This document shows, one piece after another, positions 30,452-62,901 of a DNA stretch of 64,000 nucleotides (positions within the stretch are counted from its first letter, which is position 1; every line of letters starts with the position of its first letter). Below the pieces are notes generated by a model, which was given only the letters and a program-made list of their open reading frames with translations, made no database searches and was not told the DNA's origin. This stretch comes from Thermoanaerobaculia bacterium (GTDB lineage: Bacteria > Acidobacteriota > Thermoanaerobaculia > UBA5066). Location of the stretch: contig JBBRRY010000001.1 in assembly GCA_038245905.1 (NCBI GenBank), positions 32,001 through 96,000 of the forward strand, given 5' to 3'. Made by a program: the position numbers and the translations under genes.

Positions 30452-31451
30452 GCGCAGCCGGTGCCACGAGAGCCGGAAGATTTTCTTTGAAAGGGGAAAT
30501 CGTCAACGCCATTCCTTCGCCCGCAAGCTCCCTCTTGACGTACGCGAGGGCCGTTACGCCGCCTCCCTCCGCCGGAGCGACACTCGTGAGCGACCCGGCC
30601 CTTTCACCCTCGAAGAAGACTTCGTCCCCCGGGACCGGGACGCCGCCGGAAACGGAAAGTCGGACGAGCCGCCGGTTCACGTGGCCGTATGTCTTGATGC
30701 GCGCGATCGTCTCCTGCCCGATGTAGCAGCCCTTGCTCTCGGAGATGAAGCCTCGCTCGCGGAGTCCCGCCTCGTCCGGCAGGACGGCCTCGGTCAGCTC
30801 GAAGCCCCAGCGGGGAATGCCGGCGCCGATGCGCAGGGCCTCGAGGCGGTCCGGCGATCCGGGCTCCGCCCCCGCGGAGAGAAACCCAATTCGGATTCTT
30901 TCTGAAAGGGAAGAGGGGACGCGGACGTCGTAGCCGGGGAGGCCGGTGCGGTTTTCGCGGACGATACGGAGGGACGAGACAGAGCCGCCTTCGGCGGCCC
31001 GGGGGTGTTCTTTGAAGGGGAATACGACGGCGCGATGCGCGTGCGGCGTTTCAGGCATCGCGAGGCCGCTCTCGAAGCCCACCCCCCTTCTAAGCAAATC
31101 TTCAGCGCCGCTCCCCGGCACCTCCGCCGTGAGGTGAAAGACAGCGGTAGCGGCCGTTTCATTTCCGATCGTGACGTCGTTGAAGACGAGATATTTCCGA
31201 AGCAAATCTTCTATCTTCTTCCCGAGCTCTGGCTCGCAGTTGATTTCCAGACGATCCTCCTCGCAGAGGACGACGCAGTCGGCAAGCATCTTTCCCTTCG
31301 GAGTGAGGAACGCCGCCGCGCAGCCGGTGCCCGCCGTGAGCTTCCGGATGTCGTTCGTGACGAGACCGTGCAGGAAGGACGCGCGATCCTTGCCGGTGAG
31401 GAGTACCGCGCCGCGCGCGCCGAGGTCGAAGAGGAGGGGACTACCGAGCAT
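30444..31451 (-). CDS. ygfZ: folate-binding YgfZ/GcvT-like protein
   Basis: GKDRASFLHGLVTNDI, FLTPKGKM, signature KGCYIGQE. Confidence 0.9.
   Translation of the reverse strand: MLGSPLLFDLGARGAVLLTGKDRASFLHGLVTNDIRKLTAGTGCAAAFLTPKGKMLADCVVLCEEDRLEINCEPELGKKIEDLLRKYLVFNDVTIGNETAATAVFHLTAEVPGSGAEDLLRRGVGFESGLAMPETPHAHRAVVFPFKEHPRAAEGGSVSSLRIVRENRTGLPGYDVRVPSSLSERIRIGFLSAGAEPGSPDRLEALRIGAGIPRWGFELTEAVLPDEAGLRERGFISESKGCYIGQETIARIKTYGHVNRRLVRLSVSGGVPVPGDEVFFEGERAGSLTSVAPAEGGGVTALAYVKRELAGEGMALTISPFKENLPALVAPAALA
30476..31223. repeat. dispersed GAAGATTTCTTWGAAGG motif, cluster 1 (in ygfZ): + copies 30476, 30893, 31007; - copies 31082-31103, 31195-31223
   Basis: GAAGATTTTCTTTGAAAGGGG; GGATTCTTTCTGAAAGGGAAGAGGGG; GTTCTTTGAAGGGG; rc GAAGATTTGCTTAGAAGGGG; rc GAAGATTTGCTTCGGAA. 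Confidence 0.75.
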
Positions 31452-31738
31452 GCGGGATTCTCGCACCGGACGGACGCACGAGGCCTCCGGCCGCGGAACG
31501 TGCGACAATGCGCCGACGTGACAGAGGTTTCGTGAGCGACGTGGCACCGAAAGCCGCAGGCGCCGTCCGGCGCCGCAGGCGCGGCGGGCGCGGCCGGGCA
31601 GGGGCGAAGGCCAAAGCTGCCGACGAGCTTCCGGACGTCCCGTTTCCCGAAGCCGAACCCGTTCTCGCGGCCCCGCCCTTCCTCATTCCGACGTCGAGTT
31701 TCATCGACGGAATGGGAGCGCCGCCGCCGGCAGGAGCC

Positions 31739-32494
31739 ATGAACCAGGAAGAACAGATCCTCGCTCTCTTCATCGACATCGACAACCTTCTGATCGGGCT
31801 GCGCGAGAGCGGACATCCGAAGTTCGACGTCAAGCTGCTCATTTCGCGTCTCCTCGAGAAGGGGAAGATCGTCGTCAAGCGCGCGTACGCGGACTGGAGC
31901 CGCTACACGGAATACAAGCGCGCGTTCCACGAGTCCGCGTTCGAGCTTATCGACATCCCCCAGCACCGCATGACGGGCAAGAACTCGGCGGACATCCGGA
32001 TGGTCGTGGACGCGATGGACCTCTCCTCGAACAAGCCCCACATCACGACGTTCGTCATCGGCTCGGGCGATTCCGACTTTTCCCCGCTCGTCTCGAAGCT
32101 GAAAGAGAACGACAAGCAGGTGCTGGGCTTCGGCGTGAAGGGCTCGACCTCTGAGCTCCTCATCGACAACTGCGACGAGTTTCTCTACTACGAGGACCTC
32201 GTCCGGGAGAAGACGAAGGTCCCGTCGCTTGCGGGCCTGCCCGAGAAGACGGCGGAGGTCTTCTCGCTTCTCATCGACTCGCTTCTCGCGTTGAAGCGCG
32301 AAAACAAGGAAGTCCTCTGGGGCTCGATGGTCAAGCAGACCATGCAGCGGAAGAACCCGTCCTTCAACGAGAGCTATTACGGCTTCCGCGCATTTTCCGA
32401 TCTGCTGGAGGCAGCGGAGAAGCAGAGCCTCATCTCGCTGAAGCGCGACGGGAAGAGCGGCACGTACATCATCACCGGCTTCGGCAACGCCTGA
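31739..32494 (+). CDS. NYN domain (LabA/DUF88) protein with C-terminal OST-HTH/LOTUS domain
   Basis: LFIDIDN, RAYADW, GKNSADIRMVVDAMD, SGDSDFSPL, CDEFLYY, FNESYYGF..FSDLL; AGGAG RBS; the frame stays open upstream to 31508, so an N-terminal extension is possible. Confidence 0.92.
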   Translation: MNQEEQILALFIDIDNLLIGLRESGHPKFDVKLLISRLLEKGKIVVKRAYADWSRYTEYKRAFHESAFELIDIPQHRMTGKNSADIRMVVDAMDLSSNKPHITTFVIGSGDSDFSPLVSKLKENDKQVLGFGVKGSTSELLIDNCDEFLYYEDLVREKTKVPSLAGLPEKTAEVFSLLIDSLLALKRENKEVLWGSMVKQTMQRKNPSFNESYYGFRAFSDLLEAAEKQSLISLKRDGKSGTYIITGFGNA

Positions 32495-32510
32495 CGCGTC
32501 CGAAGAGCAC

Positions 32511-33120
32511 GAAGAAGATTTCTTTGAATGGTTAAGAGGGGAGCCGGGCCTGGCGTCTGGCCGCCTCTTTCTTCGCGCGCGCTCGGCGCCTTCAAGATTT
32601 TTTCGATCCGGCGCGAGCGTTTCCGCTCGCCGCGTACGGGCAAGCCCCACGACTTCTACGTGCTCGACTGTCCCGACTGGGTGAACGTGATCGCGCTGAC
32701 CGACCGGAACGAGGTGGTCCTGGTGCGGCAGTTTCGGGCCGGAACCCGCTCCGTCACTCTCGAGATCCCGGGGGGCGGCGTGGAGGCGCGCGACGGTTCG
32801 GCCCTCGTCGCGGCCCGGCGCGAGCTGCGGGAGGAGACGGGACACGGGGCGCGACATTGGAAACGCCTCGGGGTCGTGCATCCGAACCCGGCTTTCCAGT
32901 CGAACCGCTGCACCACCTACCTCGCTCGGGGTTGCCGGCGCGTGGGAGATCTCATCCCGGACGCCGGCGAAGACCTCGCCGTGGAATGCGTGCCGCTCGA
33001 GCAGATTCCGGGCCTGATCCGGAGAGGCCGCATCACGCACTCCCTCGTCATCGCCGCTTTCCATTTTCTTTCGCTTCGAAGTTGAGGAGTCCCTATTCTC
33101 CTTTTCTAATCAATATTCTC
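32511..33120. repeat. dispersed motif, cluster 2: + copy 32511-32542 overlapping the NUDIX start; degenerate - copy 33096-33120
   Basis: GAAGAAGATTTCTTTGAATGGTTAAGAGGGG; rc GAGAATATTGATTAGAAAAGGAGAA. Confidence 0.65.
32528..33085 (+). CDS. NUDIX hydrolase (ADP-ribose pyrophosphatase-like)
   Basis: VLVRQFR..LEIPGGGVE..AARRELREETG Nudix box. Confidence 0.92.
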   Translation: MVKRGAGPGVWPPLSSRALGAFKIFSIRRERFRSPRTGKPHDFYVLDCPDWVNVIALTDRNEVVLVRQFRAGTRSVTLEIPGGGVEARDGSALVAARRELREETGHGARHWKRLGVVHPNPAFQSNRCTTYLARGCRRVGDLIPDAGEDLAVECVPLEQIPGLIRRGRITHSLVIAAFHFLSLRS

Positions 33121-33173
33121 CGAATCGCATAGTCTGCCCATTACGTCACGGGCTCGCGTCGGGCGGCTGTGCC

Positions 33174-33188
33174 CGGCACGAACCGTGA
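33174..33188 (+). promoter_or_regulatory. possible sigma-54 promoter for the 33.2-39.8 kb operon
   Basis: CGGCACG-AACC-GTGA: good -24 element, but GA instead of GC at -12. Confidence 0.35.
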
Positions 33189-33234
33189 AATGCCTCTGGC
33201 GGGCGCGAACAAACACTCGCGCCGGGAGGTTCAC

Positions 33235-34758: not shown

Positions 34759-34767
34759 TCGCGGGCG

Positions 34768-35241
34768 ATGACGAATTCCCGTCCAAACATGGAAGACCGG
34801 AGGCTGCGGAGGAAATCCGCAGCCTTCCGGTTGAAGCACGACGTTGGGAAGGCGCTCCGCTGGAGCGCGCCTGAGGCTCAGGAGACGAACGCGGAAGAGC
34901 TGTGCGCCCGGCTGACGCGGGATCTGCTCTCGAGTGCGAGCGGTGGCGGAGCGAGTCGTGACGTTCTGGAAAGTTTCTTAGAGTGGAAGAGGGAAGAGGG
35001 GCCGATATTCGCAAGCGATGATCCCGACCTGGAAACGGTCGAGCGGGCCATGGCGGCGGTGAGCCGCCTCGTCCCAAGTCTTCTTACTTTCAAAGAATCC
35101 GAAAGCAAATCCTTCCTTCTTTCTCTCGACGAGGCCTGTCTCGAGGCGTCGCGAGCCTGCACGGCGTTCTACCGGCGCATTGCCGTCGAGGACGGCCCCG
35201 AGATCGTGAGGCGGCGCGGCGAGCTTGCTGGTGACGCGTGA
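34768..35241 (+). CDS. small helical protein with H-box-like motif
   Basis: FRLKHDVGKAL near the N-terminus; stop overlaps the next start (GTGA). Confidence 0.65.
   Translation: MTNSRPNMEDRRLRRKSAAFRLKHDVGKALRWSAPEAQETNAEELCARLTRDLLSSASGGGASRDVLESFLEWKREEGPIFASDDPDLETVERAMAAVSRLVPSLLTFKESESKSFLLSLDEACLEASRACTAFYRRIAVEDGPEIVRRRGELAGDA
34968..35127. repeat. dispersed motif, cluster 3: + copy 34968-35001; - copies 35079-35127
   Basis: GAAAGTTTCTTAGAGTGGAAGAGGGAAGAGGGG; rc GAAGGATTTGCTTTC-GGATTCTTTGAAAGTAAGAAG. Confidence 0.7.
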
Positions 35242-39816: not shown

Positions 39817-40846
39817 GGACCTGAATCCGCTCCGAGGCGTGCTTGGGGTCCATGAGCCAGATCGCCCCCGCGACGGACGAGAGGAGCGAATTGCCGTCCT
39901 GAGGAGTGAAGCAGAAGCCGACGATCTCCTTGCCCTTGTCGGCGATGGCGAGGGTCGGCGTCGAGATGACGGTCTGCGACAGGATGCGTCCGTAGTACCC
40001 GTGATCGCGGCCGAACGAGAAAACTTCGTTCGCGCTCTTTCTCTCCGTGAGCGCGACGAGCGAGTTCTCCTTGAGATGCTCGATCACGGTCCTCTTGTCG
40101 GTGGGCTTCGTGAGCTCGAAGTTGAACCACACCGAGTGCATGTACTGCGTATTCAGCTTCACGGCCGACGAGAACACCTTCGGCTTCAGGTTCAGCGTCT
40201 CGTAGAGATGGAAGACGTCGCGGGCGTGGTGCGTCCCGAATTCCTCGTCGTCGTGCTTGCCGACGGTGGGCGCCGGGCTGTAATCCTTCGTCTGCGAGAT
40301 ATCGTTCGAGCGGCGCATGCAGACGAACTGCGCGCGGTCCATCGTGAGCTTGTCGCCGGCCATGCCGAGCGTCTTGATCAGGATCGCGAGGTTGTGCGTG
40401 TTGCACGACACGATCTCCAGAAATCTGTCTTCTCCGGGAATGAGCGCCGAGTCGTTGATCCCGCGCGCGTACATCTTCCCGAAACCGAACTCCGACCCCT
40501 GCGCGAGGAACCCGCGAGGACCTTTGAGGTGCTTGTAGTACGTCTCCTTGTTCTCGTTCCCCGCCGGCGTGCAGTCGATGACGACCGTCGCGCGTTCCAT
40601 CGCCTCCTGGGCGGTGTAGGAGACTTTGTGGCCGAGCGCTTCGAAGTCGGCGGACTTGTCGTCCTCGGTCGCGAGGTGAGCGCCGCGCGACATGAGGTGG
40701 GCCACCTTCGCCCGCTCGGTCTTCATCGGCGTGCGCTTGTGGAACGTCACTTCGTCGATCCCGAGGTGCTGCTTGAAGTCGGTAAAGAGCCCGATGAGGG
40801 GCTCTCCGATCGTCCCGGTGCCGACAATGTGCACGATGTTCTTCAT
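39788..40846 (-). CDS. archaeal-type (class II) glyceraldehyde-3-phosphate dehydrogenase homologue
   Basis: GTGTIG, VVIDCTP, AQGSE, IVSCNTH, MRRSND, THHARDV parallel the class II GAPDH motifs (DCTP, QGGE, VSCNTT, RRxxDP, SHHGPDV); GAGGAG RBS. Confidence 0.75.
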   Translation of the reverse strand: MKNIVHIVGTGTIGEPLIGLFTDFKQHLGIDEVTFHKRTPMKTERAKVAHLMSRGAHLATEDDKSADFEALGHKVSYTAQEAMERATVVIDCTPAGNENKETYYKHLKGPRGFLAQGSEFGFGKMYARGINDSALIPGEDRFLEIVSCNTHNLAILIKTLGMAGDKLTMDRAQFVCMRRSNDISQTKDYSPAPTVGKHDDEEFGTHHARDVFHLYETLNLKPKVFSSAVKLNTQYMHSVWFNFELTKPTDKRTVIEHLKENSLVALTERKSANEVFSFGRDHGYYGRILSQTVISTPTLAIADKGKEIVGFCFTPQDGNSLLSSVAGAIWLMDPKHASERIQVLNRFVFQEI

Positions 40847-40902
40847 GACGCTCTCCTCGCGAAGCCTGAGGCGTAGTGGCCTCGCATGCTAACGTGATTT
40901 CG

Positions 40903-41544
40903 ATGACGGAGCGCGCCCCGCCGAGCCTATTGTCCCTCGAAATTCCGGGCCCGGCGGGCTCGCTGGAGGCCCTCCTCCGCATTCCGGCGGCCCCGGCCGG
41001 AGCCGCGCTCGTCGCGCATCCGCATCCGAGCCACGGCGGCACGATGCACACGAAGGTCGTGCATCGGGCGGCCCGTCTCCTCTCGGAACGGTTCCGCCTG
41101 GAAGCGCTCCGGTTCAACTTCCGGGGAGTCGGGGCGTCGGCGGGGGAGTACGACGGCGGAGCCGGCGAGACGGAGGATGTCGTCGCGGCCGCCGCATGGC
41201 TCCGCGCGCGCCTCCCGAACGGGCCGTTCGTGCTCGCCGGCTTCTCGTTCGGCTCGCTCTGCGTTTTACGTGCGGCGACTCGCGTGGCTCCGCAAGTCCT
41301 GCTTCTGATCGGCGTTCCGATCGACAGGTGGGACGCCGCGGGGGAGGTTCCGCCGGCGACGCGCGTCGTGTGGATTCAGGGCGAGAACGACGAATTCAGC
41401 GCGGCCGCGCGTGCTGGCGAGATCGCCGCAGCACGCGGATGGACGTTTCGCGTCGTACCCGGTGCGGACCACTTCTTCTCCGAACGACTCGATGAGTTCG
41501 AGAGCGCGGCGACGGATGCCCTCGCTGAAGGGCTTTCGGGATGA
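40903..41544 (+). CDS. alpha/beta hydrolase
   Basis: HPHPSHGGTM, RFNFRGVGAS, GFSFG, QGENDE, GADHFF. Confidence 0.92.
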   Translation: MTERAPPSLLSLEIPGPAGSLEALLRIPAAPAGAALVAHPHPSHGGTMHTKVVHRAARLLSERFRLEALRFNFRGVGASAGEYDGGAGETEDVVAAAAWLRARLPNGPFVLAGFSFGSLCVLRAATRVAPQVLLLIGVPIDRWDAAGEVPPATRVVWIQGENDEFSAAARAGEIAAARGWTFRVVPGADHFFSERLDEFESAATDALAEGLSG

Positions 41545-42083
41545 TGGCTTCGGAGGAGGAAAGAGAGATTCTTAGAAAGGTCGCCCGGGATGCGGCGGCC
41601 CGCGCGATGGGGCAGCGGCCTGTGGCACTGCCGGAAATCCCTGAGGGAAGCACCCTCCTTCAGCCGGCGCCCGTGTTCGTCACGTGGAGAAGAGACGGGC
41701 GCCTGCGGGGCCGGAGCGGAACGACGGCACCCGACGCCGCACTCCTCGCCCTGGTGACGAAGCACGCCGTCGACGCTCTCTTGCACGACCCGCGCGTCCC
41801 CCCTGCGACGGCGACGGAGCTCCCGCGTCTCGTGCCCGAGATCAGCATCCTCTCGCCCTTCGAAGAAATCTTCGGGGCCGAAGGCCTCCTTGCCGGTATT
41901 CACGGCGTCCTCGTGGAGAAGGGAAAACGCCGTGGCGTCCTCTTGCCGCAGGACGCCACGGGCTTCGCCTGGGGCGGCGCGCAAATGCTGTCGCAGGCCT
42001 GCCTCAGAGCGGGACTTCCGGAGGAGAGCTGGCAGGCTCCGGGCCGCCCGCGTCTCCTCCGGTTCACCGCAGACGTGTTCTGA
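41541..42083 (+). CDS. amrA: AMMECR1 family protein (AmmeMemoRadiSam protein A)
   Basis: VFVTW..GRLRG, DPRVPP, EISILSP, HGVLV..GVLLPQ, ACLRAGL. Confidence 0.82.
   Translation: MMASEEEREILRKVARDAAARAMGQRPVALPEIPEGSTLLQPAPVFVTWRRDGRLRGRSGTTAPDAALLALVTKHAVDALLHDPRVPPATATELPRLVPEISILSPFEEIFGAEGLLAGIHGVLVEKGKRRGVLLPQDATGFAWGGAQMLSQACLRAGLPEESWQAPGRPRLLRFTADVF
41552..41873. repeat. dispersed motif, cluster 4: + copy 41552-41580; - copy 41849-41873
   Basis: GAAAGAGAGATTCTTAGAAAGG; rc GAAGATTTCTTCGAAGGGCGAGAGG. Confidence 0.75.
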
Positions 42084-42088
42084 AGGGA

Positions 42089-42823
42089 CTACTTCTCGAT
42101 CGAGAGGAGCTCGACGTCGAACACGAGAGTCGCACCACCCTTGATCCGCGGTGCGCGCCCCTCGTCGCCGTACGCGAGGTCGGACGGGCAGACGAGACGC
42201 GCCTTCCCGCCTTCCTTCATGAGCTGAAGGCCCTGGGTCCAGCACGGGATGACGCCGGTCACCGCGAAGGTCACGGGCTCGCCGCGCTCGATGGAGCTGT
42301 CGAAGACGGTTCCGTCGATGAGCGCGCCGCGGTAGTGCACCTTGACCTTGTCCGTTGCCTTCGGGGCCGCGCCCGTGCCAGCCTTCACTTCCTTGTAGAC
42401 GAAGCCGGTCGGCTGCCTGACGGCGCCAGGCTGGGCGGCCTCCTTCGCAATGAAGGCCGCGCCGGCCTTCTTTTCGCCGACGGAAGCCGCACCGAGGCGG
42501 CCCTTCGCGAACTCCTGCAGCTTCGGGCCGTATATCGCGAGATCGACCTTCGGGGGGCGACCGAGGACGCCGTCCGTGATGCCCTCCTGCACGGAGGCCA
42601 GCTCTGCGGCGGTCAGCTTGAGCGGACCAAGGTTCTGGCTCATCACGAGACCGATCGCGTAGAGCGTCTTGCCGCTCTCGGTGGCGGGGCGCGCGCCCGG
42701 CGCCCTGGCGGAGGCGGCTTTTGTGGCGGCCGGCTTGACGGGATCGGCCTTCGCGGCTTCCTCGGCGAAAGCGGGAACCGCGGTGGACAGAAGAAGGGCG
42801 GAGGCGATGAGCGTTCGCCGCAT
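42089..42823 (-). CDS. fkpA: FKBP-type peptidyl-prolyl cis-trans isomerase
   Basis: Signal peptide; YAIG N-domain; VKVHYRGALIDGTVFDSS, VIPCWTQGL, LAYG, TLVFDVELL. Confidence 0.92.
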   Translation of the reverse strand: MRRTLIASALLLSTAVPAFAEEAAKADPVKPAATKAASARAPGARPATESGKTLYAIGLVMSQNLGPLKLTAAELASVQEGITDGVLGRPPKVDLAIYGPKLQEFAKGRLGAASVGEKKAGAAFIAKEAAQPGAVRQPTGFVYKEVKAGTGAAPKATDKVKVHYRGALIDGTVFDSSIERGEPVTFAVTGVIPCWTQGLQLMKEGGKARLVCPSDLAYGDEGRAPRIKGGATLVFDVELLSIEK

Positions 42824-42885
42824 GGGATGAGATCCTCGCTTTTCGTTTGATGACGGCCCGAAGGGCGCGGCCGAAGAAGGGGATT

Positions 42886-43782
42886 CTATCCCGGAGATGC
42901 CGGGCGGCGGGTCAATATCTGAAGGAGAACCCCCGCGGCGACGGCCGCGTTCAGGGATTCGACACGGCCCAGGAGCGGAACGGTCACGCGATGATCGAGG
43001 GCCGCCGCGAGCTCAGGCGAGATTCCGTGACCCTCGGAGCCGATCACAAGGGCGATCGGGCGGACTCCGGCCATCGCCTCGGGCGCGGTGCCGCCACGGG
43101 CCTCTGCGCCAATCAGGGCAATCCCGTTCGCACGCGCAAAGACGACGGTCTCTGAAGCCGCGACGCGGGTGGCGACCGGAAGGCGAAAGGCGCTGCCCGC
43201 GGACGCTCGCAGGGCGCGCGGGGAAAACGGCGACGCGGAACCCGGTGTGAGGAGCGCGGCCGCGGCACCGAACGCTTCACCGCTGCGCAGAATCGCCCCC
43301 ACGTTCACGGGGTCCTGGATGTCGTCCAGGATGAGAAACAAGAGAGAAGAGAAAGATTTCTTTGAAGGTAATGAGGAAGGAGAAAGAGAAGAAGAAGATT
43401 TCTTAGAGGGTAATTCGGGAAAGAGGGAAGCCAGGGTTCGGCTCGGTGGAGACGCGAGCGCGACGACGCCGCGTGTTGAGGGAAGAGCGGAGAGTTTCTG
43501 GAGGACGCGCGCGCTGACCGCCGTCACCCGCGGCGACGGCGTCGCTCTCCGCGCATCGCCTTCCCCTCTTACCCTTCTAAGAAAATCCTTCTCTTCCTCT
43601 TCTCCTTCCTTGTCTTCTCCCAATTCCTTCCGAACAAACACTTCCTCGATCCGGATTCCCGCATCGAGCGCGTCCTCGATCATTCTCCGGCCCTCGAGCA
43701 GCATGGAGGCGCCGCTCGCGGCGGCCTTCACGGCCGCCGCGATGCGGGGATTCGAGGGCGCGTCGATCCGCGTGGTCGTCAA
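42886..43782 (-). CDS. TrmH/SPOUT family RNA methyltransferase with two low-complexity insertions
   Basis: SNPRI, LLEG, IQDPVNVGAILRS, RASAG, IGSEGHG, VESLNAAVA; start estimated at TTG 43782. Confidence 0.9.
   Translation of the reverse strand: MTTTRIDAPSNPRIAAAVKAAASGASMLLEGRRMIEDALDAGIRIEEVFVRKELGEDKEGEEEEKDFLRRVRGEGDARRATPSPRVTAVSARVLQKLSALPSTRGVVALASPPSRTLASLFPELPSKKSSSSLSPSSLPSKKSFSSLLFLILDDIQDPVNVGAILRSGEAFGAAAALLTPGSASPFSPRALRASAGSAFRLPVATRVAASETVVFARANGIALIGAEARGGTAPEAMAGVRPIALVIGSEGHGISPELAAALDHRVTVPLLGRVESLNAAVAAGVLLQILTRRPASPG
43341..43620. repeat. dispersed motif, cluster 5 (in the TrmH-family gene): + copies 43351, 43391; - copy 43561-43591; long GA tracts
   Basis: GAAAGATTTCTTTGAAGGTAATGAGG; GAAGAAGATTTCTTAGAGGGTAAT; rc GAAGGATTTTCTTAGAAGGGTAAGAGGGG. 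Confidence 0.85.
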
Positions 43783-43834
43783 GACCTCCCGAGAATACCG
43801 TCCCGGCCCGCGCCCGTGCTCTAATCCGCGCCGC

Positions 43835-45028
43835 ATGAAGGGTGCATTCTCGGCGGCCACGGCTGCCGCGGCCGCCGCCACTGCGAAGGCGACTCCTCTC
43901 GCGGCCTTCTGGACATTCCCCGCTGTCCTCTTCTCCGCCTTCCTCGTTTCCTGGGGGGCCGAGGCGGCCCAGTTTCTCGTCTCCCAGGGCCTCGCGCTCG
44001 CGATGCTCGCGTGGCTCCAGACGCTTCCGGAGTTCGCCGTCGAGGCCGTGATCGCGTGGGAGGCGGGTCGGGATCCCACGAAGCTCCACCTCGCGATCGC
44101 GAATTTCACGGGCTCGATTCGCTTGCTGGTCGGCCTGGGCTGGCCGCTCGTCTACTTCGTGGCCGCGTTCTTCGCCCGGCGAACCGGGAAGAGGAAGACC
44201 TGGAGCGCGATCACGTTCGACGACGAGCACGCCATCGAGATCGTGGGCCTCCTGCCTCCGCTCCTTTGGTTCACGGTCATCTGGTGGAAAGGCTCGCTCG
44301 GCCTTTTCGACGCCGCGATCCTCACCATCTGCTATGCGGCCTACCTCGTCGCGCTTCTGCGCATTCCTCCGCGCGTGGGCGACGTCGAGGAGATGGAAGA
44401 CCTGCCCGCCGTCTCGAGGTGGGCGCTCGCTCAGGGGTCGGGGCGGCGCGGCTGGGCTATCGCGGGGATTTTCCTCGTGGGAGGCGCGATTCTCGCCGTG
44501 TCGGCCCACGCCTTCGTCGAGTCGATGCTCGCGCTCGCGATCACGGCGGGCGTCTCGTCGTTCGTCTTCGTGCAGTGGGTCGCGCCTTTTCTCTCCGAGT
44601 TTCCCGAGAAGCTCTCGGCCTTCAACTGGGCGCGTCAAATCACGAAGGCGCCGATGGCGGTCATGAATCTCGTCTCGTCGACGATCAACCAGTGGTCGAT
44701 TCTCTCGGCGCTCATTCCGGTCATCTATTCGATCTCGAGAGGCACCCCGTCGGCGATCGTGTTCGACGCGCATCAGCGCGAGGAAATCCTCCTGACGATC
44801 CTCCAGAGTTTTCTCGGGTGGCTCCTGCTCGTGAACCTCGACCTGCGCGCTTTCGAGGCGGGCATCCTGTTCGTGTTTTGGTTGGTTCAATTCGCCCTGC
44901 CGTCGACACGAGGTCCGATGATCTTCGTATACGCTGGCTGGTGCGGAGTGGAGATGGCGATGATCGCGATCGGAAAACGAAAACCGCGCGCCTTCGAGGC
45001 CGCCTGGCGCGTCCTGAGACTGCGGTGA
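43835..45028 (+). CDS. Na+/Ca2+ (CaCA family) antiporter-like protein
   Basis: Alpha repeats LQTLPEFAVE..ANFTGS and PFLSEFPEK..NLVSSTINQW; about 10 TM. Confidence 0.85.
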   Translation: MKGAFSAATAAAAAATAKATPLAAFWTFPAVLFSAFLVSWGAEAAQFLVSQGLALAMLAWLQTLPEFAVEAVIAWEAGRDPTKLHLAIANFTGSIRLLVGLGWPLVYFVAAFFARRTGKRKTWSAITFDDEHAIEIVGLLPPLLWFTVIWWKGSLGLFDAAILTICYAAYLVALLRIPPRVGDVEEMEDLPAVSRWALAQGSGRRGWAIAGIFLVGGAILAVSAHAFVESMLALAITAGVSSFVFVQWVAPFLSEFPEKLSAFNWARQITKAPMAVMNLVSSTINQWSILSALIPVIYSISRGTPSAIVFDAHQREEILLTILQSFLGWLLLVNLDLRAFEAGILFVFWLVQFALPSTRGPMIFVYAGWCGVEMAMIAIGKRKPRAFEAAWRVLRLR

Positions 45029-48686: not shown

Positions 48687-50246
48687 TCATAGCTTCGACG
48701 CGGGATCGTCGCTGAACGCCTTCACGAGGAGGTGTTTCTGGACCTTGCCGAGCGCGTTGCGGGGCAGGTCCGGGACCGCGTGAACCTCGCGTGGCTTCTT
48801 GAAGTCGGCGAGATGCTCGGCCGCGAAGGCGGCGACCGCCTCGCAGACGGCTGCCGTTTTCCCCGTCGGCCCGGCGTCCTTGAGAACGATGGCCGCGGCG
48901 ACGCGCTGGCCCCAGACACGATCCGGAAGCCCGACGACCGCGGCGTCCTTGACGGCGGGATGCCGCCGGAGGACGTCCTCGATCTCTCTCGCCGAGATCT
49001 TGAAGCCTCCGCTCTTGATGATGTCGACGGACCTGCGGCCGACGATCGTCACATAGCCGTCGATGTCGCGCCGCGCCACGTCACCGGTCAGAAACCAGCC
49101 GTCCCGGAACGCGGCCGCCGTCTCGTCGGAGCGCCGCCAATAGCCATTCATGAGGCCATTGCCTTTCACCTGGATCTCGCCGAGCTCTCCCACGGGGGAC
49201 TCGCGTCCCTCGTCGTCAACGAGCCGGACCGAGCAGCCCGGGACCGGAAATCCCACGGTCCCTGGGCGCCGCTCGCCGTCATGGGGATTCGAGAGCGTGA
49301 AGAGCGTTTCGCTCATCCCATAGCGCTCCAGGATCGCGTGGCCGGTCTTCTCCTGAAAGGCGCGGAAGTCGGACGCCGGAAGGGGCGAGCTGCCCGCCGT
49401 GAAGAGACGGGCTCTCCGAAGAGCGGCGGCGGCTTCGGGCTGCGCATCCAGGTGCTCCAGGAGCCGGACGTACATCGTGGGGACGCCCATGAAGGCGGTG
49501 GCACTCTCGCGCGCGAAGGCCTCGACGGCGCGGGCCGCGTCGAAGCGTTCTTCGAGGAGGAGCGTGAAGCCCTTGACGAGCGCGCCCGCGACGCCGAGGC
49601 AGAGCCCGTGCACGTGGAAGAGGGGAAGCGCGAGGACGAGACGGTCGAGCTCCGAGAACCGCCAGAGGTCCATCACGGCGCGCGTGTTCGCCTCGAGCGC
49701 GCGGTGCGAAAGCGCGACGCCCTTGCTCTGGCCGGTCGTGCCCGAGGTGTAGATGAGCATCGCCACGTCGTTGTCGGCTGGCGGCTCGGATTCGGAGGAA
49801 GAGGGGAAGATCTGCTTAGAAGGTGAAGAGGGAAGAGGGAGAGGAACCGCGTCGGCCAGGGCGATGACGTGCTTCAGACGCGGGGGCCTGCTCATTCTAA
49901 GAATCTCTCTTAGGACCTCATTGCACTCTTCCCCCTCATCGCCCACGAGCACCGCGACGGCGCCCGAGTCCTCGAGAATGTGCCGAGCCTCGCCGGCCTT
50001 GTACCGCGTGTTGATCGGGACGTGAATGACGCCCGAGGCGAGGTGTCCGATGAAAACGGCGATCAGCTCGGGGCGGGTCTCGGCGAAGATCGCCACGCGG
50101 TCACCGCGCTGGACGCCCGCCCGCTCGAGGAAGGCCACGTATTCGCCCGCCCACTGCCGCATTTCTTCGAATGTGTAAGACCGGCCCTTCCACACGACCG
50201 CCGGATCCGCCGCGCGGGTGCGCAGGCAGGACAAGAGGCTCGTCAT
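48687..50246 (-). CDS. acyl-CoA synthetase, malonyl-CoA synthetase (MatB)-like
   Basis: YTSGTTGQSKG, LPLFHVHGL, ILERYGMSET (MatB-type ERYGMTE), GWFLTGD, IIKSGG, LPRNALGKVQK. Confidence 0.85.
   Translation of the reverse strand: MTSLLSCLRTRAADPAVVWKGRSYTFEEMRQWAGEYVAFLERAGVQRGDRVAIFAETRPELIAVFIGHLASGVIHVPINTRYKAGEARHILEDSGAVAVLVGDEGEECNEVLREILRMSRPPRLKHVIALADAVPLPLPSSPSKQIFPSSSESEPPADNDVAMLIYTSGTTGQSKGVALSHRALEANTRAVMDLWRFSELDRLVLALPLFHVHGLCLGVAGALVKGFTLLLEERFDAARAVEAFARESATAFMGVPTMYVRLLEHLDAQPEAAAALRRARLFTAGSSPLPASDFRAFQEKTGHAILERYGMSETLFTLSNPHDGERRPGTVGFPVPGCSVRLVDDEGRESPVGELGEIQVKGNGLMNGYWRRSDETAAAFRDGWFLTGDVARRDIDGYVTIVGRRSVDIIKSGGFKISAREIEDVLRRHPAVKDAAVVGLPDRVWGQRVAAAIVLKDAGPTGKTAAVCEAVAAFAAEHLADFKKPREVHAVPDLPRNALGKVQKHLLVKAFSDDPASKL
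49794..49911. repeat. dispersed motif, cluster 6: + copy 49806-49839; - copy 49891-49911
   Basis: GAAGATCTGCTTAGAAGGTGAAGAGGGAAGAGGG; rc AAGAGAGATTCTTAGAATGAG (17 nt identical to 41561-41577). Confidence 0.8.
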
Positions 50247-56479: not shown

Positions 56480-56580
56480 GAGAGCATCTCTCCTCTTCGG
56501 CCGGACGTTTCGGATGACCCAAGAATAATCGAACGACAGGGGGAGTTCAATCGCTGATGCGCCTGAATCATTTGAGACGT

Positions 56581-57741
56581 TTACGCGCAGAGAACGAGGT
56601 CTGCCAGGAGCCCCAATCCGAACGCGAGGAGACAGGCCGCGACGACCCCCGGCCATCCGAAGGCCTGCCAGGCATATCCGGGCAAAACCGAGCCAAACGT
56701 CGCTCCGACGTAGTAGAAGGTCGTATAGAGGGCTCCCGCGCCACCCTTCGCCTCCCGGGCCGTGGCGTTCACGAAGGCCGGGGCCGTGCCTTGGACGAAG
56801 AACATCCCGACGCAGAGAACGACGAGGGAGAGAATCACGACCGGGAGGACGGGAACGAGGCTCAGGACTACGGCTGCCGCCGCGATCAGGAACCCCGTCG
56901 CCATGAGCGCGCGGCGGCCGAAGCGCCCCGAGAGGTTCCCGACGATGATGGACGTCAGGACCCCGGCGCCATATACGAGATAGATCGCGGAGATCGAGCC
57001 CGTCGAGAGGCCGAATGGAGCCGCGGCGAGGTAGTAGGGGAGGTACGTGAAGATCCCGATGAACCCGAAGAACACCGAACCACCGATGAGGAATCCGCCT
57101 ACCAGCCGCCGGTCACGGAAGTGGCCCAGCATTTCGCGGTATGCCAAGCCGACCGGGATGCGCCCCCTGCGCACAGAAGGGGGGAGAAAGAGAGCCATTC
57201 CGAGCGCCGCGGCCAGCGTGAAGACCGCGAACACGACGAAGGGCGTTCGCCAGCTGAAATGGCTCGCGATCCAACCGCTTCCCACGCGCCCCGTGAGCCC
57301 GCCCATGACAGATGCCGCAACCCACCCGCCGACGGCGGGCCCCAGCCTCGGCCCGCCGAACTGATCCCCGAGGTAGGCCACGGCCACAGCGGTGACGCCG
57401 GGCACCAGCAGCCCCTGCGCGCCGCGGAGGACGACAAGGAGCGGAAGGTTCGGCGCGCTGGCGCAGAGGAACGTTGGAACGGACAGCAGCGCGCAGCTCC
57501 AGACCATGACCGGCTTGCGTCCGAGGGCGTCCGCAAGGGGGCCCCAGGCGTTCGAGATGAGGGCGATCATGAGGACGACCACCGAGAGCGTGAGCGCGGC
57601 TGTCGGTGCGGACACTCCAAACTCGCGGGAGAGAAGCGGCAGGATCGGCTGCGTGACGTAGACGTCCGCGAAGACCGCGACCGTCGCGAAAAAAAGGGGG
57701 AAGAGCGCCCGCCGGTCGCCGTGGAGTGAGGGCCCGGTCAT
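56581..57741 (-). CDS. MFS transporter (YnfM-like)
   Basis: YVTQPILP, GPLADALGRKPVM, RGAQG, 12 TM, LYTTFYYVG. Confidence 0.9.
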   Translation of the reverse strand: MTGPSLHGDRRALFPLFFATVAVFADVYVTQPILPLLSREFGVSAPTAALTLSVVVLMIALISNAWGPLADALGRKPVMVWSCALLSVPTFLCASAPNLPLLVVLRGAQGLLVPGVTAVAVAYLGDQFGGPRLGPAVGGWVAASVMGGLTGRVGSGWIASHFSWRTPFVVFAVFTLAAALGMALFLPPSVRRGRIPVGLAYREMLGHFRDRRLVGGFLIGGSVFFGFIGIFTYLPYYLAAAPFGLSTGSISAIYLVYGAGVLTSIIVGNLSGRFGRRALMATGFLIAAAAVVLSLVPVLPVVILSLVVLCVGMFFVQGTAPAFVNATAREAKGGAGALYTTFYYVGATFGSVLPGYAWQAFGWPGVVAACLLAFGLGLLADLVLCA

Positions 57742-57748
57742 CGGTTTG

Positions 57749-59311: not shown

Positions 59312-60285
59312 CACGTCACGCGGTGAGCGCGGACGTTTGCAAGGAGGTCGGAGCACCGGAAGGGCCGCTCGCCCTTGGCGCGCTTCCGTCCGAGGACCGT
59401 CATGAGTCCGCGCGGCAGGAACACGATGAAGAACACGATCACGAGGCCGAGGACCGTCGGGTGCAGCTCGATGAACTTGCCCCAGATGTACGTCGAGAGG
59501 AGCTGGTAGACGGCGGCCCCGAGGACCGGGCCGACCACCGTCCCGACGCCGCCGATGATCGTCGCGATGATCATCTGGAGCGTGTAGTCGATCCTGAAGA
59601 AGTCGCCGGGCGTCACGTGGACGTTCTGGTAGGCCGTGATGCCGCCCGCCACCGCCGCGAACACGGCGGAGATGGCGTACGCGGCGACCTTGAAGAGCGT
59701 CGTATTGACGCCAAGCATCCGGGCCGCGTCCTGGTCCTCGCGGATCGCGACGCAGCCGTACCCCAGCTTCGACCGCGCGAACGCCCACGTCGCGAGGAGG
59801 CCCAGGATCACGAAACCCACGGCCGTGTAGTAGAAGAACTCGCCGTCGCTCCGGATCGGGAGGTCGATGCCCGTGGAGCCTTCCGTCACGCTGTCCCAGT
59901 TGTCCGCCACCTGGGCGAGCGCTTCGGCGACGCCGAGCGTCGCGATCGCGAAGTAGTGGCCCTTGAGGCGCAGGATCGGCAGGCCGAGGAGGATCGCGAC
60001 GCACGCCGCCAGGAGCGCGCCGGTCCCGAGCGCAGCGAAGAACGGCACGTGCCACTTGCCGAGCATGAGAAGGCCCGTCGTGTATGCGCCGATCCCGAAG
60101 TACGCGACGTTTCCGAACGCCGCGTAGCCCGTGTAGCCGCCGATGAAGTTCCAGCCCTGCGCTGTGAGAGCGAGGAGGAGAAAGCGCGTGTACGTCAGGA
60201 GCTTGTAGCTCGAGACGAATCTCGGGAGCGCGAGGAGGAGGGCGAGGGCGAGGAGCGTCCCAAGGACGGCGAGGCCCTTCTTCAA
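59311..60285 (-). CDS. livM: branched-chain amino acid-type ABC permease
   Basis: WNFIGGYTGY, RLKGHYFAIAT, AIRED, IIGGVGTVVGP. Confidence 0.9.
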   Translation of the reverse strand: MKKGLAVLGTLLALALLLALPRFVSSYKLLTYTRFLLLALTAQGWNFIGGYTGYAAFGNVAYFGIGAYTTGLLMLGKWHVPFFAALGTGALLAACVAILLGLPILRLKGHYFAIATLGVAEALAQVADNWDSVTEGSTGIDLPIRSDGEFFYYTAVGFVILGLLATWAFARSKLGYGCVAIREDQDAARMLGVNTTLFKVAAYAISAVFAAVAGGITAYQNVHVTPGDFFRIDYTLQMIIATIIGGVGTVVGPVLGAAVYQLLSTYIWGKFIELHPTVLGLVIVFFIVFLPRGLMTVLGRKRAKGERPFRCSDLLANVRAHRVT

Positions 60286-61148
60286 GCCGACTTCCCGGCG
60301 ATGCCCTGCGGGCGGAGGATCAGCAGGAGAACGAGGATGGCGAACGTGACGGCGCGGGACAGCGACGGCAGCCGCGCGCCGACGAAGACGTCGACGAACG
60401 CGTAGATGGCGGCGCCGATCACGACGTTCGCGACGTTGCCGAGGCCGCCGAGAACGCAGATCGCGAAGGCGCGCTGCGTGTACATGCCGCCGAGGTTCGG
60501 GTCGAACGGGACGATCATCGAGAGGAGCGAGCCGGCCGCGCCGGCCATGCCCGCACCGATCGCGAACGTCGACGCGTACACGACGGCGACCTTGACGCCC
60601 GTGAGGCGCGCCGCGTCGAGGTCCATGCCCGTCGCGCGGATGGCCCGGCCGGTGCGCGTGCTCTTCAGGTACCAGGCGAGCGCCGCGACGAGGACGAGCG
60701 AGACTCCGAGCGCGCCGAGCCGGATATACGGGATCCGGACGCTCCCGAGCGTCAACCCGGTGCCGCTGTACGGCGTGGTGACGGAGCGCAGGTCGGCCTT
60801 GAAGAAGAAATTGATGAGGTTGACGATGAGGAGCTCGAGACCGAAGGTCAGGAGAAACGTCGCGAGGAGCGGCGCCTTGATGATCTGGTTGATCAGCCCG
60901 CGCTGGATTCCCCAGCCGAGCGTGAAGAGGACGAGCATGGACAGCGGGATCGAAAGGAACGGGTCGACGTGCAGGAGCTCGTGCAGGAAGAACGTGATGT
61001 ACGCGCCGAGGACGATGAACGCCCCGTGCGCGAGGTTCACGATGTTCATGATCCCCCACACGAGCGAAAACCCAAGCGCGACGAGCGCGAGGATTCCGCT
61101 CAGGAGGACCGCGTTGACGAAGATCTGTCCGAGCTCGCCGAGGCTCAC
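60282..61148 (-). CDS. livH: branched-chain amino acid-type ABC permease
   Basis: GFSLVWGIMNIVNLAHG, GRAIRAT, VLGGLG, RPQG. Confidence 0.9.
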   Translation of the reverse strand: MSLGELGQIFVNAVLLSGILALVALGFSLVWGIMNIVNLAHGAFIVLGAYITFFLHELLHVDPFLSIPLSMLVLFTLGWGIQRGLINQIIKAPLLATFLLTFGLELLIVNLINFFFKADLRSVTTPYSGTGLTLGSVRIPYIRLGALGVSLVLVAALAWYLKSTRTGRAIRATGMDLDAARLTGVKVAVVYASTFAIGAGMAGAAGSLLSMIVPFDPNLGGMYTQRAFAICVLGGLGNVANVVIGAAIYAFVDVFVGARLPSLSRAVTFAILVLLLILRPQGIAGKSA

Positions 61149-62365
61149 TTCCGCTTGTCCCAGGGCACCATCGGGTAGAGCGCTTCCTTCTCGGCCACGT
61201 TCGCGGGGAAGACGGTGTACTTCCTCCCGTCCGGCTGGAGCTGCTCGATCGCCATCGGCTTGTAGATGTTGATCCCGCGGGAGTCGAACTTGATCTGCCC
61301 GTAGAACGTCATGATGTCGAGCGCCGCGATGGCGTCGCGGACGTTCGACGGGTCGAGCGAGTTCGCCTTCTCGATGGCGCGCCAGAACGCGATGACGGCG
61401 GCCGAGGACTCGGCGACCTGGTAGGGGATGACGGAGTACTTCGGGTTCTTCGCCCGGAACGCGTCGCCATAGGCTTTCGGCGTCTTCCACGGGTCGTCGC
61501 CGTTGTACTTGAGCGCTTCCGTCCACTGCGTCGCACCGAAGATGTAGTCCGCGTTGCTCTTCAGGTTCTCGCGGAACTCCGGCGACGAGGGTCCGACCGA
61601 AAAGCCCATCGCCTTGGGCGAGACGCCGAGGTCCTTGGCCTGCTTGACGATGAGGAGCGCGTCCTGCAGGTGGCCGGCCCCGAGGACGATGTCGGGGTTC
61701 TTCGCCTTGATGTTCGTCAGGAGCGCGCTCACGTCCTGCGTGCCGGTCGGATACAGCTCCTGGTAGACGACCGTGAGGCCCTTCTCCTTCGCGTAATCGG
61801 CGCCGCCGGAGGCCACTTCCTTGGAGAACGGCTCGTTCTCGCCGAGGACCGCCACGGTCTTCGCGGTCTTGTCCCTCGCGATCACGAGGTCGATGAGGCC
61901 CTTGAGGTAGAGCTTCGCGGGGGAGAGGACGGCGAACGTGTACTTGTAGCCCTTGTTGAAGATCGACTCGGCCGAGCCGTTCGCCTCGATCATCGGGATC
62001 TTGTACTTCTCGCAGATCGGGGCGGCCGTGCCCGAGGGGGCGGAGCCATACGGGCCGAGGATGAACGTGACCTTGTCCTCGTTGATGAGCTTCTCGATGA
62101 GCTGGGCCGTCCGCTCGGACTTCGACTCGTCGTCGTAGTACTTGACGCTGACCTTGTACTTCTTCCCGCCGACCGTGATTCCGCCGATTTCGTTGAGCTT
62201 GTCGACGAAGAAGTTGTAGCCGTCCCGGGTGTACTCGCCTTCCTTGGCGGTCTTGCCGGTCAGCGAGACGGCGGCGCCGAAGACGATCGTGTCCTCGGCA
62301 GGAGCGGGCAGAGCGGAGACGAGAAGCAGGAATGCGAGCAGCGGGACCAGCGCGGTACGCTCCAT
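61145..62365 (-). CDS. LivK-type substrate-binding protein
   Basis: Signal peptide; FGAAVSLTG, YYDDES, LGPYGS; AGGAGG RBS. Confidence 0.9.
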   Translation of the reverse strand: MERTALVPLLAFLLLVSALPAPAEDTIVFGAAVSLTGKTAKEGEYTRDGYNFFVDKLNEIGGITVGGKKYKVSVKYYDDESKSERTAQLIEKLINEDKVTFILGPYGSAPSGTAAPICEKYKIPMIEANGSAESIFNKGYKYTFAVLSPAKLYLKGLIDLVIARDKTAKTVAVLGENEPFSKEVASGGADYAKEKGLTVVYQELYPTGTQDVSALLTNIKAKNPDIVLGAGHLQDALLIVKQAKDLGVSPKAMGFSVGPSSPEFRENLKSNADYIFGATQWTEALKYNGDDPWKTPKAYGDAFRAKNPKYSVIPYQVAESSAAVIAFWRAIEKANSLDPSNVRDAIAALDIMTFYGQIKFDSRGINIYKPMAIEQLQPDGRKYTVFPANVAEKEALYPMVPWDKRK

Positions 62366-62445
62366 CGAGAGCCTCCTGTGACCGGGTCGGGTAATTTGTG
62401 CGGGAACTATACCCGAGGGATCAATGCGCGGGGAGGGGGAAGAGA

Positions 62446-62901
62446 GTGGCCGTGGCCGATGTCCAGCGCTTCGTCGGGGTGTGGGATCTTGAGGGAATTG
62501 AAGACGAAGATTTCTTTGAAGGTACGAGGGGAAGGGTGCCGGCTGTCGGCCTTGAGCGGCCTGTGGGGCTCCTCATCTACCTCGCTTCGGGCGAGATGTC
62601 GGTGAACTTTGCCGGGTCCTCCCGCATTCACTTTCTAAGAGAATTCTTCCCGTCCCCCTCCGAGCTCGCGGCGGCCGGCGCCGCGTACGGCGGGTATGCG
62701 GGGCGGTGGGAGCTGGACGAGGCGCGCCACGAGGTGCTGCATCACGCGGAGGTCGCCTTCATCCCGAATCGCGTCGGCCGGACGATCCGCCGCTCTTACT
62801 CATTCGCAGAAGAATCTTCTCTTCTCTCTCTTCGTCCCATCGCGCTCTCGCCGCACGAGAAGGCGCCAGAACGGACCCTGAAGTGGAGACGGCGGACCTG
62901 A
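62446..62901 (+). CDS. lipocalin-like domain protein
   Basis: FVGVWDL, GLLIY..GEMSV, YGGYAGRW, HHAEVAFIPNRVG, LKWRR; GGAGG RBS. Confidence 0.8.
   Translation: MAVADVQRFVGVWDLEGIEDEDFFEGTRGRVPAVGLERPVGLLIYLASGEMSVNFAGSSRIHFLREFFPSPSELAAAGAAYGGYAGRWELDEARHEVLHHAEVAFIPNRVGRTIRRSYSFAEESSLLSLRPIALSPHEKAPERTLKWRRRT
62506..62833. repeat. dispersed motif, cluster 7: + copy 62506-62536; - copies 62631-62651 and 62793-62833 (degenerate)
   Basis: GAAGATTTCTTTGAAGGTACGAGGGG (18 nt identical to 43353-43370); rc GAAGAATTCTCTTAGAAAG; rc GAGAAGATTCTTCTGCGAATGAGTAAGAG. Confidence 0.8.

Follow-up and report, generated by a model that had tools for sequence, protein, structure and literature searches.

Several families of short DNA words dispersed over chromosomes are known. 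The matS sites, SlmA-binding sites (SBS), Noc-binding sites (NBS), FtsK-orienting polar sequences (KOPS), and Ter sites, bound by Tus, are conserved words, each read by a dedicated protein; matS, SBS, and NBS have palindromic sequences, and KOPS and Ter a distribution that is skewed between replichores, without pairing. Type III restriction and convergent CTCF sites follow another principle, in which function needs two asymmetric sites facing each other at a variable distance. HIP1 of cyanobacteria, a singly occurring 8-bp palindrome of unknown function, is over-represented within coding regions whatever the frame and is more conserved than codons would predict. Repetitive extragenic palindromes (REPs) and the REPINs built from them are short repeats of genus-level range, often in inverted pairs and with a long vertical inheritance, REPs being extragenic palindromes and REPINs having a fixed spacing and an accompanying RAYT gene. 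To our knowledge, none of the chromosomal site families listed above occurs as hundreds of 100-bp intragenic brackets. We report here on a 64,000-nucleotide stretch of the genome of a Thermoanaerobaculia bacterium (contig JBBRRY010000001.1, positions 32,001 to 96,000; the window hereafter) and on a DNA word that recurs in it and throughout that genome, an asymmetric AT-rich word of ~30 bp (word F) whose copies stand head to head in pairs, mostly inside housekeeping genes.

The closest known kinds are the uptake signal sequences and the in-frame palindromic elements, and word F lacks a defining feature of each. Uptake sequences, as described in PMC2817400, are present in hundreds of copies, similar in number in both orientations; many are coding at poorly conserved amino acids, they accumulate after vertical residence, and some form dyad pairs. 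Like the uptake signal sequences (USS) of Pasteurellaceae and the DNA uptake sequences (DUS) of Neisseriaceae, as portrayed in PMC2817400 and PMC2346458, word F is lineage-specific, strand-equal, coding in several frames, apparently at poorly conserved residues, kept at homologous positions, and in part arranged in dyads. Unlike USS and DUS, three quarters of its copies lie in convergent intragenic pairs 40 to 300 bp apart, some arms are insertions, the word is longer and carries a purine tract, its density is lower, and the competence genes found here do not track it. With the Rickettsia palindromic elements (RPEs) and in-frame MITEs (miniature transposable elements with inverted repeats; Correia, ERIC), it shares the nature of a short inverted-repeat DNA placed in frame within unrelated metabolic genes and retained in relatives. 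RPE and MITE units, however, have a defined length and an interior of their own and are inserted whole, whereas here the interior belongs to the host and the spacing varies freely, and an arm can come or go without its partner or be built by substitution. The word differs from REP and REPIN by its 74% of genic copies, its asymmetry, its free spacing, and the lack of a Y1_Tnp match in the genome, and from HIP1 by being asymmetric, ~30 bp long, and paired. It resembles the protein-read chromosomal sites in being a dispersed conserved word, and the Type III and CTCF sites in the head-to-head order of asymmetric sites, the reader being putative here.

The genome under study (G000; 3,797,265 bases in 113 contigs, 67.8% GC, 96% complete; the window is G000:C1:32001-96000) has its closest public records among uncultured Acidobacteriota and Thermoanaerobaculia metagenome-assembled genomes (MAGs) from soil, peat, and sediment projects. 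Word F reads as a GA-rich tract followed by GAT TTC TTW GAA GGT RAR AGG. Its logo is asymmetric, with a purine-rich tract of ~15 to 20 nt, the core, and then a G-rich edge; the inner core is GATTTCTTWGAAGGTRARAGG, and the outer GA tract is degenerate and variable in length. The core holds just a 9-bp dyad, and the T and C variants at the W position break even that. The word dominates the over-represented vocabulary of the genome, in which the top 10-mers are all fragments of it: TTTCTTAGAA has 56 occurrences where base composition predicts 0.2, TTTCTTTGAA has 46, the 11-mer TTCTTAGAAGG has 46 forward and 49 reverse occurrences against 5 and 3 for the same word read backward, and a 14-mer has 35 against 0 for its backward-read control. 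Exact-word enrichment ranges from 30- to 290-fold. Among the words of the form TTCTNNGAA, those with TA, AA, TT, and TC middles are enriched 32- to 61-fold, and those with other middles 1- to 5-fold. The enrichment is genome-wide, over base composition as well as backward-read controls. A position-weight matrix (PWM) trained on the genome-wide copies detected 599 copies at a cutoff of at least 18 bits, lowered to 12 bits within the window and to 10 bits for partner arms. The same matrix gave 190 matches at 18 bits on the reversed genome; this control is weak because the word is nearly mirror-symmetric, and the exact-word controls were relied on instead.

The copies come in pairs, and it is this convergent pairing, beyond what the original prediction had observed, that defines the element. 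Neighbouring copies within 400 bp of each other in G000 are convergent ('+-') in 183 cases, divergent ('-+') in 15, and tandem in 49, and a convergent partner scoring at least 10 bits exists for 452 of the 599. The same order prevails in related genomes, with 38 '+-' against 2 '-+' in the distant congener G014, 37 convergent pairs in 400 kb of the nearer congener G008, and convergent pairs visible in the match lists of G048 and G009 (all comparisons with G008, G014, and the sister-genus genome G032 cover 400 kb of each). Centre-to-centre spacing is unimodal, with a median of 115 bp, a 5-95% range of 51 to 273 bp, and extremes of 28 and 373 bp. Both arms lie inside one gene in 152 of 203 pairs, and 187 of the 203 stand within one gene or between co-directional genes. 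The unit is thus made of two head-to-head copies of an asymmetric ~30-bp word that bracket ~40 to 300 bp (mode ~100), and a genome has ~200 to 300 of these units, of which three quarters lie within housekeeping genes.

Between the arms lies ordinary host coding sequence. Interiors have the GC content typical of the genome (0.696), and no k-mer common to them, no third motif, and no excess of structure (z -0.10) were found. What they encode are conserved portions of housekeeping enzymes, among them LysA, the kinase core, and the substrate-binding domain of SpoU. For the SpoU/TrmH gene of the window, the interior is the second half of the substrate-binding domain and aligns with four outgroup genomes; in ten further genes compared with G032, the interior always aligns. 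The arms themselves have mixed origins. The sense arm of TrmH is a 14-residue insertion relative to the four outgroup genomes, and its antisense arm sits in an S/P-rich linker; relative to G032, the arm is an 11-residue insertion in LigA and a same-length replacement in the kinases and in an RsmH-like gene. The question put by the original prediction, whether copies are indels or substitutions in orthologues, has for its answer that both occur, some arms being insertions of 11 to 14 codons and others replacements of the same length. Partner arms are no closer to each other (identity 0.634) than to non-partners (0.636).

Among the 599 copies, 443 fall within called genes, 120 are intergenic, and 36 straddle gene ends. 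The genic copies are divided between 209 sense and 234 antisense, with equal scores, and solo copies between 38 and 48 (p = 0.33); all three phases are used on both strands. Which base stands at W depends on the frame, in such a way that no stop arises; it is mostly A in intergenic copies (76 of 120) and split among A, T, and C in genic ones. Some 237 of 3127 gene calls (about 8%) carry the word, and the 251 host proteins form 228 unrelated clusters, the largest of which, the kinases, accounts for 18 of 488 copies. Hosts include LysA (with three pairs), DapB, aspartokinase, LigA, FolP, RsmH-like proteins, ABC ATPases, and Ser/Thr kinases. Because all frames and both strands are used and the host clusters are unrelated, neither a protein motif nor paralogy can explain the word. 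Two further roles were considered and rejected. Intergenic copies show no peak directly upstream of start codons, against a translation start signal, and non-genic copies, of which 96 stand between co-directional, 35 between divergent, and 18 between convergent genes, follow approximately the share of intergenic space, against a terminator.

Comparisons within the genus show that the word is held at the same positions by a constraint acting on the nucleotide sequence. Of the 77 copies that align with G008, at 86.5% identity over the aligned bases, 65 are conserved there, 3 are weak, and 9 are missing; against G014, whose proteins are 56 to 88% identical, 60 of 75 copies are conserved. Identity between G000 and G008 is 0.83 to 0.91 in the core and 0.60 to 0.75 in the flanks, for a genome average of 0.865. 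Across 36 genes compared between G000 and G014, codons ending in A or T remained A/T-ending for the same amino acid in 120 of 162 cases (74%) in the core vs 382 of 1679 (23%) elsewhere (p = 6e-39). Third-position identity was highest in the core (0.72), with 0.64 over the remainder of the genes concerned and 0.56 in the flanks. The TrmH sense arm is nearly invariant at all codon positions in 12 congeneric orthologues; the major-allele frequency at its third positions is 0.95 vs 0.70 at the other third positions of the gene. The view of the original prediction, that conservation acts on nucleic acid rather than on protein, is borne out by the use of all frames and both strands, by the 228 unrelated host clusters, and by the synonymous A/T-ending codons that are kept. 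Differences between G008 and G000 concern single arms, which G008 has, together with part of the interior, and G000 lacks; the new arms match the consensus rather than their partner.

The word is confined to a narrow lineage. The 11-mer is found in 51 to 240 copies in all 16 genomes of the genus, in 1 to 31 copies in six genomes of one sister genus, and in 0 to 2 copies in 43 other genomes of the order (two of the genomes surveyed, G019 and G024, are unpublished). The 14-mer was found in 10 of 10 genus genomes and in 0 of 141 from elsewhere in the class; among 401 genomes surveyed in the phylum, those with the strict pair pattern all belong to the genus. At one TrmH position, the word is exact in G048, and the sister-genus genome G032 encodes the same peptide with a synonymous TTA to CTG change, which looks, at this single locus, like decay once the constraint was lost. 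On the viral side, 14 viral contigs match a 20-letter degenerate pattern; all have 31 to 49% GC with single strong matches, and no high-GC viral contig carried the word. These matches are taken as chance, since they are single strong matches in AT-rich DNA. We found no description of the word or of its architecture in the literature on repeats of Thermoanaerobaculia and Acidobacteria and on in-frame inverted repeats, within a coverage that did not extend to supplements and subscription journals. Altogether, the word constitutes a genus-specific, strand-symmetric cis-element that is not a protein motif and does not behave as an active transposon.

The window has 20 copies that score 12 bits or more with the PWM. 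They all lie between 30471 and 62823, and every cluster has the convergent, + then -, arrangement; the ~18 copies in seven clusters first counted by eye agree with this. The GCV_T/YgfZ-like gene (30444-31547, minus strand) holds two pairs. The left arm of the first is at 30471-30503 (+, 30.5 bits), in the 3' part of the gene, and its right arm, in reverse, at 30597-30629 (-, 26.1 bits); the second is formed by 30996-31028 (+, 22.2 bits) and 31076-31108 (-, 23.5 bits), and a weak copy lies at 30886-30918 (+, 15.5 bits). A strong copy at 32508-32540 (+, 35.5 bits) spans the junction between the end of the NYN-domain gene and the start of the NUDIX gene, and a reverse copy at 33092-33124 (-, 17.6 bits) directly follows the NUDIX stop; these two enclose the whole NUDIX gene and, at 584 bp apart, exceed the usual spacing. 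The open reading frame (ORF) 34768-35241, which has no Pfam match, contains a left arm at 34963-34995 (+, 26.1 bits) and a weak right arm at 35077-35109 (-, 13.3 bits). The AMMECR1 gene (41541-42083) has its left arm at the gene start (41557-41589, +, 20.7 bits) and its right arm at 41847-41879 (-, 23.5 bits), the latter being conserved in G014. The AMP-binding ligase gene (minus strand) carries a pair at 49801-49833 (+, 33.3 bits) and 49883-49915 (-, 16.9 bits) and a weak solo copy at 50151-50183 (+, 16.5 bits). Lastly, the lipocalin-like gene holds a sense left arm coding for the peptide EDEDFFEG (62500-62532, +, 33.0 bits), a reverse right arm (62621-62653, -, 30.8 bits), and a second reverse copy (62791-62823, -, 26.5 bits).

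The SpoU/TrmH gene, which is read on the minus strand, holds three copies. Two antisense copies stand in tandem, one at 43346-43378 (+, 40.7 bits), coding part of an S/P/K-rich linker before the methylase domain, and one at 43388-43420 (+, 33.7 bits), which is the left arm; the sense copy at 43563-43595 (-, 41.9 bits) encodes the peptide EEKDFLRRVRGEG. This antisense arm is duplicated in both G000 and G008. The sense arm is tandemly duplicated in one congener (PLZI01000089.1), where two peptides coded by the word stand 12 residues apart; arms can hence multiply locally. The long minus-strand ORF at 42886-44109 has a spurious N-terminal extension of 100 residues, which is an antisense reading of the neighbouring gene 43703-45028. 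The codon-score gene caller used for the genome-wide survey dropped the real TrmH gene, apparently due to its word-laden middle. One contig of sequencing run X1 (depth 20.6, shorter side of 25 letters) joins the end of the TrmH left arm to the start of the right arm, 43411-43563, and omits the 151-base interior; a chimeric contig formed through the shared word and a real deletion variant are equally possible, and joints with a side shorter than 30 letters often come from repeats or other organisms.

Most of what the original prediction had said of these copies stood up to the genome-wide analysis. The 18-mer that it saw on the plus strand at 43353-43370 and 62507-62524 is present, with 5 matches at up to 3 mismatches vs 0.01 expected, and so is the 17-mer shared by 41561-41577 (+) and 49895-49911 (-), for which 0.06 were expected; this 17-mer lies within the left arm of AMMECR1 and the right arm of the ligase pair. 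Pfam agreed with the host genes as they had been named (GCV_T/YgfZ-like, NYN, NUDIX, AMMECR1, SpoU/TrmH, AMP-binding ligase, and lipocalin-like). The codons that had looked rare are so in long ORFs, AGA making up 2.9% of Arg, TTA 0.3% of Leu, and TTT 11.9% of Phe codons. An assembly artefact, which it had listed as a refutation, was not what we found: the word stands at orthologous positions of the TrmH locus in 12 independent MAGs and in 10 further records from differently named projects, which rules out an artefact or an adaptor. Logan contigs of run X1 cover 40454-42118 and 42800-44014 without differences, X1 possibly being the source sample and thus not independent.

Positions 1 to 30000 of the window (G000:C1:32001-62000) hold no copy of at least 12 bits. 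This copy-free 30 kb is made of ordinary, genus-conserved genes encoding two-component systems, a 2751-residue ORF with a GT2-like domain, TPR and SurE proteins, and GGDEF/EAL proteins. At the other extreme, the densest locus of the genome has 17 copies in 20 kb (G000:C5:20001-40000) and is a lysine biosynthesis cluster (asd, aspartokinase, dapB, dapA, dapD-like, and lysA), in which the lysA homologue (5556-6806 of this locus, minus strand) alone has three convergent pairs. Ser/Thr kinase paralogues (G000:C24:11310-42518, C11:59694-62706, and C35:10370-13055) carry a pair at the same place of the kinase domain, with peptides such as LPEEFFEGEER and YSFEEIPG; the G032 kinases have unrelated residues at these sites, and the pair either spread by gene duplication or was written repeatedly. 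Between convergent genes of G008 (G008:C13, ~375860-376080; L091), a forward and a reverse arm flank a GC-rich, terminator-like hairpin, and G000 has the reverse arm only. If termination works at this hairpin, each mRNA would receive one arm, which argues against an obligatory stem within a single transcript. The end of the 16S rRNA gene was also considered. The 16S 3' end and spacer start of G011 (L149, 3040-3075; same in L148, L151, and L152) read CACCTCCTTTCTAAGGGATC, which has 11 of 14 letters in common with the core of the reverse word; given three G-U pairs, full pairing with the F core would be possible. Mimicry of the 16S 3' end or of an rRNA processing stem is probably a coincidence, since the sequence is identical in G032, which is without the word, and no copy was found near the 16S 5' end.

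We favour, at a probability of about 0.3, a reading in which the copies are paired head-to-head binding sites on duplex DNA for a putative lineage-specific factor. It is preferred because of the strand symmetry, the arms that fit the consensus rather than their partner, and the head-to-head rule, and the equal numbers and scores of sense and antisense copies fit what is expected of a duplex-DNA site. Each copy would be bound by a sequence-specific factor of this lineage, and two bound copies would cooperate only when facing each other, be it as a dimer or as a pair of polar blocks on both sides of the 100 bp enclosed. It could then work like a paired operator or a boundary site for chromosome structure or DNA tracking, and genes would accept such an element only where loops are under little constraint, and in a frame that gives no stop. 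Several observations weigh against this proposal. A quarter of the copies (147 of 599) are solo, and the spacing shows no 10- to 11-bp periodicity (R = 0.06, p about 0.5), such as one would usually see with a rigid protein spanning ~100 bp; helically phased DNA looping was rejected on this ground. The distribution along the genome is patchy, with 38 of 154 20-kb bins empty vs 22.7 expected when pairs are taken as units, and the gene calls (3127 genes, 93% coverage) come from a home-made codon-score caller that missed the TrmH gene itself. None of the candidate reader families searched for tracks the word, the histone fold being found in 0 of 29 genomes and Hfq in 29 of 29, with or without the word; a search for single-subunit RNA polymerase, run without a positive control, gave no match. 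Moreover, the outer purine tract, degenerate and variable in length, is more naturally explained by GA:CU strand pairing in many registers, and the word is predicted to pair with its reverse copy in the minimum-energy fold of 61 of 70 units (mean z -2.5 vs -0.3 for controls), the TrmH unit reaching z -3.93 with 0 of 200 shuffles as stable. These folds are what would be expected of an element acting in RNA (or in single-strand DNA), in which a copy and its downstream complement would form a ~20- to 30-bp stem enclosing ~100 nt, to be read by a sequence-specific double-stranded RNA reader or an RNase III-type enzyme and thus to tune the stability or processing of a few hundred mRNAs. Duplexes between forward and reverse copies average -33 kcal/mol vs -24 for the word with random 50-mers, the arms are able to share a transcript in the 187 of 203 pairs within one gene or between co-directional genes, and pairing that tolerates shifts of register suits the degenerate purine and pyrimidine outer tracts. 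There is also a precedent, since inverted arms in transcripts can be RNase III targets, as reported in PMC10969869 for mRNAs cleaved at the inverted repeats of Correia elements. We nevertheless regard a stem as rather unlikely, because partners show no complementarity of their own (-33.7 vs -32.8 kcal/mol for non-partners, p = 0.23, and identity as given above), and mismatches that would leave a G-U wobble in the sense RNA are not in excess (602 vs 575 overall, 334 vs 307 in the core). For 11 TrmH orthologues, RNAalifold gave -12.9 kcal/mol with a covariation term of +0.26 and the cores unpaired; the lipocalin unit is about as stable as its shuffles (z -0.23, 80 of 200), and the divergent order, which could form a stem as well, is 12 times rarer. 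Rfam had no match at the gathering score and none at the arms at E values up to 1.

The paired-site reading must also be set against other explanations. Under molecular drive, a sequence-biased turnover of DNA, for instance by a transformation receptor preferring the word, would slowly enrich it wherever proteins tolerate it, the single copy having no function of its own. Many of the hallmarks of uptake sequences listed in PMC2817400 are shared by the word, 74% of whose copies are genic and lie in stretches evolving faster than the genome average; arms arise through substitution as well as insertion, positions are conserved between species, the copy number is graded across lineages from 1 to 240, and ComEC and ComEA-like genes are present. 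These two genes are, however, equally present in relatives without the word (all 5 genomes tested). Uptake also leaves the convergent-only rule and the 40- to 300-bp intragenic spacing unexplained, the dyad pairs treated in PMC2817400 being intergenic terminators, and the density of ~1 per 6 kb is below that of the three genomes tabulated there. As the copies are moreover clumped (the empty bins mentioned above) and several arms are clean insertions of 11 to 14 codons, this explanation appears unlikely to us. The copies could instead be what is left of a mobile element, of miniature inverted-repeat or solo-end type, that inserted in frame in an ancient burst and is now immobile and partly domesticated. 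Its convergent layout would resemble terminal inverted repeats, short units of ~90 to 130 bp with GC-rich, non-conserved interiors exist, many of them intergenic, and some arms are insertions vs the outgroups (14 residues in TrmH, 11 in LigA). Single arms with part of an interior are present in G008 and absent in G000, and the A found at the W position in 76 of 120 intergenic copies, as opposed to the genic split among A, T, and C, is the pattern expected from a master sequence followed by selection against stops. What makes this origin quite improbable is that the interior is unique host sequence aligning to outgroup proteins, with no unit length (spacing 28 to 373 bp) and with partner arms no more alike than non-partners. 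In addition, 80 to 84% of the copies are at orthologous positions in congeners and single arms differ where genomes differ, the constraint on synonymous sites is unexpected for dead elements, and the viral contigs that matched (14 of 14 at 31 to 49% GC) include no high-GC carrier of the word. Searches of G000 for Y1_Tnp (PF01797), RVT_1, and DDE_3, the families covered along with DDE_Tnp_1, gave no match in this 96% complete MAG, in which insertion sequences may well have failed to assemble, as they often do; one weak DDE_Tnp_1 match (31 bits) lies at a contig end. The miniature selfish element akin to RPEs that the original prediction had counted among its candidates is accordingly disfavoured, given the host interior, the lack of a unit length, the conserved positions, and the fact that neither a RAYT nor a reverse transcriptase was found; its two other candidates, a binding site for a protein and an uptake-like signal, each keep some probability. 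Intragenic inversion is a known phenomenon (PMC10028968), and short intragenic segments flanked by inverted repeats whose common consensus would suit one master recombinase could be taken for invertons, the arms being where a site-specific invertase would recombine, flip the segment between them, and so recode proteins. We hold this to be very improbable: none of 30 interiors mapped between G008 and G000 is inverted (28 are clearly forward, and 2 are unmatched since G000 is without the interior), what would be flipped are conserved parts of housekeeping enzymes, and the core dyad has just 9 bp and is broken by the W variants. No strand-changing joint was listed at the arms among the contigs of run X1.

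Returning to paired sites on duplex DNA, we tentatively suggest that they could represent a new class of chromosomal cis-element, in which ~200 to 300 segments of ~100 bp are bracketed head to head by a selected 30-bp word and would be read as pairs by a lineage-specific factor. The pairs might serve, for example, as polar barriers or clamps for a DNA-tracking machine, or might mark the enclosed segment for a programmed DNA or RNA transaction, and re-coding to accommodate them would have affected proteins throughout the proteome. We know of no counterpart to the combination of a strict head-to-head rule with a free spacing among the described classes of bacterial repeats (USS/DUS, REP/REPIN, MITE/RPE, and HIP1), which points to an undescribed reader or process.

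Our analysis also bears on the annotation of such genomes, as the AT-rich patches break codon-based gene callers, to the point that the TrmH gene was lost, and would pass for insertions or low-complexity noise in MAG annotation. The graded distribution of the word, which is full in the genus and partial in the sister genus, with none in the 141 other genomes searched within the class, offers a comparative design for finding its reader. For the bacteria themselves, these findings show that a whole genus can impose a second, nucleotide-level code on about 8% of its genes, lysA, dapB, ligA, folP, and the protein kinases included, with loops re-coded and rare codons kept throughout the history of the genus.

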